DNA of 63,673 nt, filler included, from Reclinomonas americana ATCC 50394 (GCA_048213135.1; 7 parts of 4 records of this genome joined end to end with filler, not necessarily neighbours in it); one strand, 5' to 3'. Counted from the whole stretch's first letter, positions 6,449-62,567 are shown. The notes: generated from the letters alone by a model not told the origin. Numbers and translations: made by a program.

Positions 6449-9400
6449 ATGTCGTCCTCGGCTGTGCTCTCTCGCATCATGCGCCGAGTGTCTGCCTCTC
6501 GTGCCACTATCGTGATGCCAGTGCTTCTCCTGCTGCTGACAGTCGGTGAGTGTGGCTGGGGTGAGACATTTCCGCTTCCTCCCACTCGCACACACCACTC
6601 TCGCTGGCTTCTCTCTCTCTCATACCTCCCCCATCCTTCTCCTTGGCTCCTTCTTTCGTGCATTGTGTCGCGCACGTGCACGCTGCGACGACCATGAGTG
6701 AGTGTGCAACTTTTCCCTTTTTCGCGTCATTGCGTCAGTCGCGCCCTTTGCGCATTGCGAACAAGGTTGCACATACCAGGAGAGGGGCAGTGGTGGAGCT
6801 TGCATGCACCTCCCCCGTATTGCNNNNNNNNNNNNNNNNNNNNNNNNNNNNNNNNNNNNNNNNNNNNNNNNNNNNNNNNNNNNNNNNNNNNNNNNNNNNN
6901 NNNNNNNNNNNNNNNNNNNNNNNNNNNNNNNNNNNNNNNNNNNNNNNNNNNNNNNNNNNNNNNNNNNNNNNNNNNNNNNNNNNNNNNNNNNNNNNNNNNN
7001 NNNNNNNNNNNNNNNNNNNNNNNNNNNNNNNNNNNNNNNNNNNNNNNNNNNNNNNNNNNNNNNNNNNNNNNNNNNNNNNNNNNNNNNNNNNNNNNNNNNN
7101 NNNNNNNNNNNNNNNNNNNNNNNNNNNNNNNNNNNNNNNNNNNNNNNNNNNNNNNNNNNNNNNNNNNNNNNNNNNNNNNNNNNNNNNNNNNNNNNNNNNN
7201 NNNNNNNNNNNNNNNNNNNNNNNNNNNNNNNNNNNNNNNNNNNNNNNNNNNNNNNNNNNNNNNNNNNNNNNNNNNNNNNNNNNNNNNNNNNNNNNNNNNN
7301 NNNNNNNNNNNNNNNNNNNNNNNNNGTGGCGAATTTCGCAGGCACCATCATGCTGTGTTGGGAGAGTGGGGGTGACCGTGAGCGTGAGTGAGTGGAAAAT
7401 CAATCATGTCCCTTTTTGATCTTTTTTCAACCGTTGCACAATGTGCAAGATTCGCGTGTTTTCTTGCTGCACATGCATGATTCGTATGTTTTCGCGCGCT
7501 CTGTCACTTCAATTTCGTTCTCGCCGCTGTCCCTCCCTCCCTCGCCTCCCTCTGCTTCTGTGGTGGTGTGTTTCCTCTCTGCTCGTTCGTCACGCTGTGT
7601 TGCTGGCTGCGTGCATTTTTCACTAAATGAGAAAACAAATACAGGAATTCTTCTCTGCGGAGCTGTCGGCGCAGTGACTGTGACCACCAGCAGTGCCTCG
7701 TCCATCACTCCCGTCTCCGCTGTGCTGAATGCCAGCGTGGACAACAGCGGTGGTGCCAGTGAGTTGCCGAATTGGATCCAGTTTGCCACCGACTCCTCGG
7801 CCTTTGAGGCCTCTGTGAGTTACTACGCCGGCAGCAACGGATACGGCAGCAGCGACGGTCCGCTTCTTTCTGCACAGTTCGCGTTCCCCACTGTTGCGTG
7901 GCGCAGCAAGCAGCACTCAGTTGCCTTGCATCACACAAAACCAACTTACAATTCGGAATTTTCTTTCCTCTCCACACAAACGCACACACACGCACAGGCC
8001 GTCACGTCTGACAAGGCCGGCAACCTCTACGTCCTCGAGAATGCGTGCGTAGCCACTGTCGCCACCACCACCATCCTTCTGTCTCTCCTCCCACCTCACC
8101 CTCCCATTCCCAACAGTTTCTTCCGCATCCGCAAAGTGGGTGTGGCCGACGGACAGGTCACCCGCATCACTGGCGGTGTCGGCAGCAACATGAGCATGTC
8201 GAATGCCCCCATTGATGGCGGCCCTGACACGGCGACATTCTACGGGTTTGTTACCAGTCGTCACTCCGTCTGCGACATGCATGAGCTCATGTGTGTTGTG
8301 TCGTGACTGTGCAGGGCGGTGCAGCTTGCCGTGGACGAGGCCGACGGCCAGCCCAGCTCCATTTTCGTTGACACAGGTGACGCGCGTGTCCCTCCTCTCT
8401 CTCTCTCTCTCTCGTTGTTGCGTTGTTCTCACTCGCTCCTCGATGACGCGACAGCCGAATTGCATTCGCCGCGTCAACCTCAGCGACAGCATGACGACCA
8501 CGTTGGCTGGCACATTCCAAGACAGCACCACCGACTCTCCGAGCACTCGCTTCTCGTCGCCTTACGGCATTGCTGTGGACTCTGCCACCGGCACTCTCTA
8601 CGTTGCCGAGAACGGCGCTCACATCATTCGGTGTGTGTGAGCACGCCCGCAAGAATCACATCTCCCCACGACTGACACGCCGCTGCTGCTGCTGCTTCTC
8701 CCTTGCCTCTTTCCCCCCTCTGCAGTGAACTCAAGCGCGACGGCTCTGGCGTGGCGGTCACGTGCGGCTCTCGTGGCAACGAAGGCGTTGTTGATGGTGC
8801 TTGCGCCTCCGCTGCGCGTTTCTCCCGGCCCACTACTGTTGCCCTCGATTCCACCAACCATATCCTCTACGTTGTGTCTTCGAACACCAACTGCGTTGTC
8901 AAGATCGATCTCGTCGCCAAGACGTTGTCGCATCTGACTGGACAGTGCAACAATTACTATCTGGACTCGGTGGAGGAGAAGACCAACGATATCATGGGCT
9001 CCTTCCGTTCCATCCAGGGCATTGCCTTGCACCCGAAACTCGACTTCCTGTACGCCACCGATGTTGCGCACCGTGTCGCTGGCTGGCTCTCTCCCTCCGA
9101 TTATGGCAAGCTCTGCTCACGCGTACGCCGCGGTTGTGTTTGCATGCAGATTGGCTACCCCACCCTGTGGTCGATCAATGTGGCCTCCGGTGCCACGGGC
9201 AGTCACGGCGGCAATGGAGGTGGTGGCGTTATTCGGAATGGTGCACTGTCGAGTGTTTACTATGGCTACCTGGTGCGTTCTGCAAGCAGTGAGAGCATCG
9301 CCGCTCTCCTCGTCATCTCTCACGCGTGTGATGTCACTGGTGCAGTCCGGAATCACCTTCACCGATCAGTACACGGCCTTCTTTACCGGTATGCTTTTTG

Positions 9401-61945: not shown

Positions 61946-62567
61946 GAGTCTCGTCGCCACCTGGTCAACCAGCACTTCCGCAAGATCTCCATGGTGATGG
62001 ATTGCGTCGGGTGCGAAAAGTGCCGCATGTGGTCCAAGCTGCAGACACTCGGCATCGCCACCGCCCTCAAGATCATGATGTCCGACACGCCGCTGGCGTT
62101 GGTCAACATGGAGCGCAACGAGATCATTGTTGCGTGCCTCCCCTCCGTCACCTCTGTTGACCCGTTTGCTGACACGCACGTGCGTGCGCACAGGCGCTGG
62201 TGAACACGGCGCAACACTGGGGCGAGTCCATCGAGGCAATTCGCGAGATGCGCGAAATGCAATGGATGGTATCGTCGTTCGGGCGCTTGTGTGGGCATCA
62301 CAACAACACTCCTGATTCATTCTCTCCCTCTTGCAGGCCACCGTGTCGTCCACCGTCTCGGTGGCTGCCGTCGGTCTCCTCGCGCTCACGGCGTTGTACA
62401 TGACGGTGCTGTGCCTGCGGACGCTACGAAAGAGTCGTCCCGCCGCCGCCGCCGCCTCGTCGGCGACTGCCTCGAGGTCGTCACCCTCCATCAATGGCAG
62501 CGGCAGCGGCGCCTCTGCCACTGTCAACGGCACGGTTGCCGAGTCAGAAGACGCCAAGACCAAATAA
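61946..62567 (+). CDS. ERO1: ER oxidoreductin 1, 3' part, with a C-terminal hydrophobic helix
   Basis: [34 protein letters not shown] (CxxCxxC motif) and ERNEII|ALVNT; stop TAA. Confidence 0.93.

Follow-up and report, generated by a model that had tools for sequence, protein, structure and literature searches.

How is the start of an intron marked when the exon before it does not end in G? The question is raised by a stretch of 63,673 nucleotides (nt) from Reclinomonas americana ATCC 50394 (GCA_048213135.1), assembled from seven parts of four records joined by filler and here called the window, in which about a quarter of the predicted introns begin with a tightly conserved GTTGCG after an exon-final A, C or T (H|GTTGCG, where H is any base other than G and the bar marks the exon-intron junction). 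An earlier reading of this DNA, made without other data (the sequence-only reading), had claimed 33 donors (5′ splice sites) of the form H|GTT(G/A)(C/A)G, 29 of them GTTGCG and none preceded by G. These 33 sites had been chosen by eye and are called listed donors below. All of the coordinates proved to carry the motif as described: 29 read GTTGCG, three GTTGAG (+19057, -31654 and -45191) and one GTTACG (+53627), with G at position -1 in 0/33. We conclude that the H|GTTGCG class is very probably spliced as predicted, and ask below how it might be recognised.

Intron prediction and donor classes

GTTGCG is not in excess across the window, where 77 sites on the two strands compare with 57.4 or 73.8 expected under order-2 or order-3 Markov models, so any signal must be positional. 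Because the listed donors had been chosen by eye, we built a donor-blind parser, a generalised hidden Markov model whose knowledge of introns was limited to a GT or GC 5′ end and an AG 3′ end, and which scored exons with a self-trained three-periodic Markov model seeded by Pfam-matched stretches. The donor-blind parse gave 141 introns with a median length of 75 nt and recovered 19 of the 33 listed sites. Its most frequent donor hexamer was GTTGCG (19/141), followed by GTGCGT (10), GTTTGT (8), GTGTGT (6) and GTGAGT (4); the background frequency of GTTGCG was 44 among 3,663 sense-strand GT sites in gene spans (1.2%; binomial P=1.3e-14).

An unsupervised position weight matrix mixture over donor positions +3 to +9 was best fitted by two components, GTGnGT and GTTGCGT, with a Bayesian information criterion of 2691.5 against 2703.9 for one component and 2735.1 for three. 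A refined parse added the donor mixture on +3 to +9, an acceptor profile and an intron-length prior; it used no exonic position, so the base at -1 stays independent of it. This parse produced 144 introns (median 72 nt) and recovered 30 of the 33 listed donors. The three that it missed were 7893, where the parse continued 27 nt in frame to 7920 and paralogous units of the same gene favour 7893, and 41023 and 45191, both of which adjoin gaps of N. Unlisted candidates were found at +58073 and, with low confidence, at -3985. The class accounts for 30 of the 121 GT introns of 45-160 nt (25%) or 32 of all 144 (22%), in agreement with the quarter of introns estimated earlier, and is present in 12 of 24 gene fragments.

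The logo of the class, H|GTTGCGT (n=30), is far tighter than that of ordinary donors, with T+3 in 100% (30/30 by definition of the class), G+4 in 97%, C+5 in 93%, G+6 in 100% and T+7 in 80%. Ordinary donors (n=91) read G|GT(G/T)(T/A/C)GT, with G-1 in 81%, G+5 in 81%, T+6 in 71% and G+4 in 4%. The conserved G and T have moved by one position, from +5/+6 to +6/+7, and the logos bear out the description of the motif in the sequence-only reading as the ordinary donor with one additional T. The extra base is always T: the variants GTTGAGT and GTTACGT are the strong donors GTGAGT and GTACGT plus a T, and no GT(A/C/G)GCGT donor occurs among the introns of the refined parse. Among ordinary donors G is almost absent from +4, where a pyrimidine is favoured, and 14 of the 74 that follow G have TT at +3/+4.

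As a signal the heptamer is also specific, since 25 of the 29 sense-strand copies of GTTGCGT in gene spans serve as donors, a proportion matching those of G|GTGCGT (9/12) and G|GTTTGT (9/10). Within exons GTTGCG occurs 11 times in sense against 23 times in antisense, and two of the 11 are mis-parsed listed donors.

The base at the end of the exon

None of the 30 class donors among the 121 introns follows G (A 14, C 8, T 8), against 74 with G and 17 without in the other 91 (Fisher P=1.2e-16). The same split, as non-G:G, is seen in all 144 introns (32:0 in the class, 35:77 in the others; P=1.3e-13), in the donor-blind parse (19:0 and 40:52; P=1.3e-6) and outside the big plus-strand gene at 7326-22311 (17:0 and 9:49; P=1e-10). 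Coding composition predicts 9.3 G at -1 among 30 class donors, and the probability of finding none is 1.25e-5. Inside the big gene the 13 class donors all follow non-G bases, while eight other donors follow non-G and 25 follow G; the sequence-only reading had counted 11 of 14 non-G and 0 of 32 G-ending exons with the motif, of which the absence after G stands and the tallies are close to ours (13/21 and 0/25) without being identical. G at -1 and a strong intron-side motif are anti-correlated, as the two-class model of 5′ splice sites discussed below supposes (Fisher P=1.2e-16), and the intron side of the class is GUUGCGU, not GURAG in the normal register.

Eight of the 17 non-G exceptions carry both G+5 and T+6 and are mostly GTGCGT or GTGAGT, as the sequence-only reading had noted, and several of the remainder look like parser errors. 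In phase-0 introns the final codon has no G-ending synonym in 8 of 14 class exons, against 1 of 38 others, which indicates that a non-G ending is often imposed by the protein.

The big gene, which is multi-exon and broken by gaps, offers a comparison within one locus, since it consists of tandem paralogous units with NHL-type repeats and six intron positions are common to each unit. At the first position, units ending in CAG take GTGGAG or GTGCGT, and units ending in CGA (and ACT at 7893) take GTTGCGT. At the second, CAA and TGC are followed by GTTGCGT, and CAG and CGG by GTTTCG or GTTTGT; at the third, CAT and TGT are followed by GTTGCGT and ATG by GTGAAT. The fourth position, seen in four units, invariably combines a preceding Asp codon (GAT or GAC) with a GTTGCG donor. 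A single non-G unit (CAC) takes a perfect GTGAGT. Compared unit by unit, the donor form has changed repeatedly in step with the last exon base.

Placement of the junctions

A class of this kind could be an artefact, either because frame-restoring gene models put the donors in the wrong place or because an assembly error introduced the second T into what are truly H|GTGCGT donors. Predicted models do underlie every junction but one, the draft assembly contains 26 runs of N and six artificial linkers, and two listed sites adjoin N gaps. The exceptional junction was confirmed when exons were scanned singly against Pfam: the exons flanking the intron 39723/39646 match SNF2-rel_dom at profile positions 54-114 (117 with three further residues) and 121-141 (118 with three residues taken off), and abut exactly. 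Neighbouring ordinary junctions in this SNF2 gene also abut, at 141|142 and 180-182, as does a TRM junction at 184|185. The intron at 39723 is in frame, and reading through it adds some 33 residues that the SNF2 profile does not match.

For the class as a whole, read-through of 24 of 30 introns meets a stop or shifts the frame, and an ordinary-looking in-frame donor lies within 30 nt in just eight of 30. The donor-blind parse still finds the motif at 16 times its background frequency, and a random extra T would neither track the -1 base (0/30 G) nor persist at paralogous positions whose intron bodies have diverged. Other junctions are less informative. The ERO1 exon before 62129 ends at position 338 of 354 in the ERO1 profile; in a comparison with PDB, the alignment of the first exon with human ERO1-alpha stops at query residue 51 of 61, and the 25-residue exon that follows has no match. 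At the TRM1 junctions 36234 and 36656 the adjoining exons are too short to give Pfam matches. Taken together, we regard an artefactual origin of the class as highly improbable.

A second displacement to consider is a cut one base downstream, HG|UUGCGU, in the register of U1/U6 pairing, by which the introns would not start with GU. The site would then be G|GUGCGU with one mismatch, and in 7 of 30 cases the next exon begins with G, so that either cut would yield the same messenger RNA. A frame-restoring AG within 15 nt is available in eight of 30 introns, however, and the other 22 would end without AG, whereas YAG stands at the predicted 3′ end in all 30. We hold a downstream cut to be even less probable than an artefact.

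Intron bodies and 3′ ends

Apart from the donor, the class introns resemble their neighbours. All 30 run from GT to YAG (C at -3 in 23, T in 7), composition is alike, and median length is 73 nt in the class and 70 nt in the others. A branch-like CTNAY is found in 87% of class introns and 79% of others, at a median 18.5 and 19 nt from the 3′ end, with CTCAC, CTGAC and CTCAT common to both; CTCAC, GCTCA and CTGAC are the leading 5-mers of the last 45 nt, as in the other introns. The class shows a marginal tendency towards TAG acceptors (7/30 against 8/91; P=0.053), and CTGAC looked commoner in it (8 of 30 against 8 of 91 occurrences). Window-wide, the branch-like motif is mainly CTCAC, then CTCAT and CTGAC, not CTAAC/CTRAY, and there is little polypyrimidine tract.

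U12-type introns have the 5′ motif RTATCCTT and the branch motif TCCTTAAC near the 3′ end. They resemble the class in providing a second highly conserved 5′ motif beside ordinary donors, and differ in that the motif is unrelated and in making up under 1% of introns against about 25% here. We rejected a U12-type assignment, as the sequence-only reading had done: the donor is GTTGCGT, and branch-like motif, distance, length, composition and 3′ ends match those of ordinary introns. On their GT-AG ends and branch-like motif, the class introns are best read as real introns of the major (U2-type) spliceosome.

The similarity among class introns could instead reflect descent, if they were mobile 'introner' copies bearing a GTTGCG end or products of tandem duplication in the repeat gene. 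Eight of the 30 do lie in one repeat-rich gene fragment, several at paralogous positions. An all-against-all search of the 121 introns with the basic local alignment search tool (BLAST) and a low-complexity filter gave four pairs at E<1e-3, none of them class-to-class; unfiltered, it gave 30 pairs, among which the sole class-to-class pair is a simple repeat. With the class spread over 12 of 24 gene fragments, and the -1 association persisting outside the big gene, we give common descent hardly any weight. Dinucleotide microsatellites (GT and TC runs) are common within introns of the window, for example at +15369, +25510, +52323, +61651 and +17426 and at other sites, and lie behind most of the intron-intron similarity (20 of the 30 similar pairs).

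Recognition of the class

We propose that H|GUUGCGU would be a second 5′ splice-site form of the ordinary major spliceosome, used where the protein sequence bars an exon-final G and recognised with an offset of one nucleotide. Both forms contain a single footprint, G-x-U-N-N-G-U, as G|GU-NN-GU in ordinary donors and |GUU-GC-GU in the class, where intron G+1 would occupy the place usually held by the last exon G and cleavage would remain before the first GU. Ordinary U1, and then U6, would read the class in an offset or bulged register, and G at -1 would be avoided because it would bring in the normal register as a competitor, one with a poor intron side. Such a register would account for the displacement of the conserved G and T by one base and for the donor-plus-T variants, and the +3 T might be invariant because it would face the A normally paired with U+2. 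The sequence-only reading had likewise let intron G+1 replace G-1, an idea that fits the -1 rule and the invariant T but leaves the preference over H|GTGAGT unexplained. We put the chances that the class is read in a one-nucleotide-offset register at about even. That offset recognition is routine, non-G exons receiving GUUGCGU through displaced U1/U6 or through a co-evolved small nuclear RNA (snRNA) or protein reader, seems to us a little short of even.

Pairing was modelled with the universal U1 5′ end, which was assumed, leaving out pseudouridines and the proteins of the small nuclear ribonucleoprotein (snRNP). That end has been called nearly invariant (bioRxiv 10.1101/2022.12.07.519539), and ACUUAC is given as the standard U1 pairing site (bioRxiv 10.1101/2022.06.08.495308). 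With this assumed U1, the class lacks the normal-register complementarity expected of U2-type donors. The best duplexes place G+6 opposite C4 in 10 of 30 sites and G+1 opposite C9 in six of 30, at weak energies under the same assumption, and a bulged +2/+3 structure is predicted solely for a model site with G at -1.

Several points weigh against the offset reading. Best-register pairing with the assumed universal U1 averages -1.3 kcal/mol in the class against -7.1 kcal/mol in G-ending ordinary donors, and on the same assumption H|GUGCGU gives -2.2 to -2.5 and H|GUGAGU -6.6 to -6.9 kcal/mol, so U1 pairing alone fails to explain a preference of about 30 to 8 for the extra-T form. The extra T is followed by the core GC at 27 of 30 sites, by GA at two and by AC at one, and an A in the core would pair better with U1 than the observed GC. 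A search of the window with Rfam at E<=1 found no snRNA gene, U1, U5 and U6 included, giving weak chance matches only, and no RNA family was reported at curated thresholds. The refined donor model had itself learned the class, the donor-blind parse giving the same picture with smaller counts; the junctions, save the Pfam-confirmed one, come from our own gene models; and the evidence covers one 64-kb window of one genome.

The weak U1 pairing and the GC core together make a co-evolved reader a serious rival to the offset register. A variant U1 or other snRNA might complement GUUGCGU or GCGU, or a LUC7, U1C or tri-snRNP factor might have altered specificity. The near-invariance of the heptamer beside much looser ordinary donors speaks for such a reader, as does the weak pairing of the class with the universal U1 end, assumed here. 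So does the core, for GC is favoured after non-G in both forms (27/30 in the class, and 5/17 in non-G ordinary donors, which lean towards it) and less so in the 74 G-ending donors, where GA (17), TT (14), GT (11) and GC (11) are all frequent; the preference suggests that intron-side strength is achieved here with GCGU, where animals and plants use GURAG (PMC11732430). There are precedents: Entamoeba and Mastigamoeba have modified U1 pairing sites that match their atypical donors, Physarum is reported to have standard plus modified U1 (both bioRxiv 10.1101/2022.06.08.495308), and LUC7 paralogues favour exon-side-strong or intron-side-strong 5′ sites (bioRxiv 10.1101/2022.12.07.519539). On the other side, GTTGAGT and GTTACGT have the look of strong donors with a T added and not of imperfect matches to a single complement, the 3′ half of the class introns is ordinary, and lineages with C or U at +4 mostly retain the standard U1 (bioRxiv 10.1101/2022.06.08.495308). 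On balance we think a dedicated reader unlikely, if well worth keeping in view beside the offset register.

Other donor forms

G|GTTTGT is a frequent ordinary donor, for example at +8246, +10035, +11291, -39144, -38821 and -38293. Two non-G donors fit H|GTT-NN-GT but carry different cores, c|GTTTTGT and a|GTTCCGT (-26076 and +53702, in weak gene models), a hint that the extra-T form may accept cores beyond GC, GA and AC. The parser also gave GC-AG introns at 8382 and 21243 on the plus strand and at 4690, 2353, 1753 and 36959 on the minus strand. Two of these follow non-G exon ends with donors that are otherwise strong (gac|GCGCGT and cat|GCAAGT), and predicted GC-AG introns may be a third solution for non-G exons.

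Features of the window

The window has about 59% G+C and a eukaryotic gene layout, dense and with many short introns per gene. Six identical 100-nt spacers, N44-TTAATTAATTAA-N44, carry stops in all six frames and are artificial contig linkers, so the blocks on either side are perhaps not adjacent and genes are cut there. Pfam matches include an SNF2-family ATPase, a TRM1 transfer RNA methyltransferase, ERO1, an HMG box, a PH domain, TPR repeats, an Exo_endo_phos domain and NHL repeats. Class introns and linkers are given in Table 1. Within +53610-53769 the parser predicts two introns, with donors GTTACGT and GTTCCGT, separated by an exon of 3 nt; a single 143-nt intron spanning 53627-53769, which leaves the frame unchanged, is more likely.

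Table 1. Class introns, candidate class introns and artificial linkers of the window, numbered from its first nucleotide; lower case marks the last three exon bases.
Feature	Coordinates	Strand	Basis
Intron act|GTTGCGT	7893..7997	+	Listed; motif present; junction from paralogous units
Intron gat|GTTGCGC, phase 0 after Asp	9063..9149	+	Listed; both parses, paralogous units
Intron caa|GTTGCGT	10228..10304	+	Listed; both parses, paralogous units
Intron cat|GTTGCGT	10366..10433	+	Listed; refined parse, paralogous units
Intron gat|GTTGCGT	11090..11167	+	Listed; both parses, paralogous units
Intron tgc|GTTGCGT	12174..12237	+	Listed; both parses, paralogous units
Intron tgt|GTTGCGT	12299..12366	+	Listed; refined parse, paralogous units
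Intron gac|GTTGCGT	12953..13019	+	Listed; both parses, paralogous units
Intron cga|GTTGCGT	14023..14100	+	Listed; both parses; paralogous CAG positions take ordinary donors
Intron gat|GTTGCGC	15178..15245	+	Listed; refined parse
Intron tca|GTTGAGT (variant)	19057..19138	+	Listed; both parses
Intron aga|GTTGCGT	21419..21504	+	Listed; refined parse
Intron gca|GTTGCGT	21613..21682	+	Listed; both parses
Intron gct|GTTGCGT	21759..21824	+	Listed; refined parse
Intron cga|GTTGCGT	52971..53114	+	Listed; refined parse
Intron cca|GTTACGT (variant)	53627..53698, 3′ end uncertain	+	Listed; refined parse
Intron (404 nt) agc|GTTGCGT	54918..55321	+	Listed; both parses
Intron aca|GTTGCGC	56250..56323	+	Listed; both parses
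Intron gct|GTTGCGT	56641..56722	+	Listed; both parses
Intron cca|GTTGCGC	58073..58149	+	Unlisted; both parses; low-scoring gene fragment
ERO1-gene intron att|GTTGCGT	62129..62193	+	Listed; both parses
Intron atc|GTTGCGT, donor 32007	31927..32007	-	Listed; refined parse
Intron aca|GTTGAGT (variant), donor 31654	31579..31654	-	Listed; refined parse
TRM1-gene intron aac|GTTGCGT, donor 34745	34663..34745	-	Listed; refined parse, exon-wise Pfam scan
TRM1-gene intron cac|GTTGCGT, donor 36234	36171..36234	-	Listed; both parses
TRM1-gene intron gga|GTTGCGT, donor 36656	36602..36656	-	Listed; both parses
SNF2-family gene intron cac|GTTGCGT, donor 39723	39646..39723	-	Listed; profile-confirmed junction
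SNF2-family gene intron caa|GTTGCGG, donor 40163	40099..40163	-	Listed; both parses
Intron start gct|GTTGCGT, donor 41023	40970..41023	-	Listed; motif only; acceptor inside N gap 40898-40969
Intron atc|GTTGCGT, donor 41225	41148..41225	-	Listed; both parses
Intron tca|GTTGCGC, donor 41516	41448..41516	-	Listed; both parses
Intron cac|GTTGCGT, donor 42520	42460..42520	-	Listed; both parses
Possible intron start gac|GTTGAGT (variant), donor 45191	45129..45191	-	Listed; motif; N gap 62 nt away; neither parse
Intron caa|GTTGCGT, donor 49386	49317..49386	-	Listed; both parses
Possible 382-nt intron cta|GTTGCGT, donor 3985	3604..3985	-	Unlisted; refined parse; low confidence
Artificial linkers	15479-15578, 25379-25478, 29697-29796, 49820-49919, 58586-58685, 61744-61843		

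Implications

If the class extends genome-wide, about one quarter of introns would use a donor that single-profile splice models score poorly, and annotation with such models would misplace many exon ends; the donor-blind parse misplaced 11 of 30 class donors. A genome-wide class would also provide a natural system, with thousands of sites, for asking how cleavage is positioned when pairing register and GU disagree, a conflict open to study in human at rare sites only. It would test the limits of compensation between the exon side and the intron side, and the co-evolution of snRNAs with LUC7, U1C and the tri-snRNP. If the offset reading is true, this would be the first genome with a non-canonical register as a main class of the major spliceosome.

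Comparison with known splice-site systems

The H|GTTGCG class was not found described in the text of open-licence papers and bioRxiv, a search that figures showing logos alone would escape. Related concepts were found, and the motif itself led only to primers, aptamers and miRNAs. A 2011 multi-species survey (PMC3033335), in its available text, presents no genome with an inserted-U donor class tied to the last exon base.

The closest parallels are the shifted and +2/+3 bulged U1 registers of human, which have been proven by experiment but are rare, the +2/+3 sites predicted numbering 68 (Tan et al. 2016, PMC4856993). As in the class, the exon offers no G at the usual pairing place, GU is followed by an additional nucleotide, G and U are conserved one position deeper and cleavage is kept at GU. 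The human sites are rare and have AAGU-type cores, whereas the class described here comprises about 25% of introns, is near-invariant with a GCGU core, follows a strict -1 rule and is known from sequence.

Two major 5′ splice-site classes have been distinguished, AG//GUNNN, read by U5 loop 1, and NN//GURAG, read by the U6 ACAGA box (Parker, Fica and Simpson 2025, PMC11732430), and 5′ sites have been called 'left-handed' or 'right-handed' in relation to LUC7 (bioRxiv 10.1101/2022.12.07.519539). Here too, strength on the exon side (G at -1) is anti-correlated with strength on the intron side, and a given site has one or the other. The class differs in reading GU+U+GCGU, with one base more, and in a division that is near all-or-none, not a tendency.

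Entamoeba and Mastigamoeba (Roy and Bowser, bioRxiv 10.1101/2022.06.08.495308) share with R. americana a lineage-specific, tight and atypical donor with a pyrimidine or GC-type core at +3/+4, and the same work reports a +4 pyrimidine preference in a few other lineages. In the two amoebae, as presented there, one transformed consensus serves nearly all introns, whereas here two forms would be chosen by the last exon base. In C. elegans unc-73(e936), the first intron base has mutated from G to U and GU dinucleotides close by come into use, tri-snRNP proteins (SNRP-27) hold the cleavage position through the hand-over from U1 to U6, and the authors tie +6 G to bulged registers (PMC6140464); those observations concern cryptic sites in a mutant allele and not a class that occurs naturally across a genome.

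It was already known that -1 G and the intron side compensate for each other, that 5′ sites can be viewed as two classes and that U1 can pair in non-canonical registers. What was not found in the literature searched is a genome with an inserted-U offset donor as a main class, tied almost absolutely to the last base of the exon.

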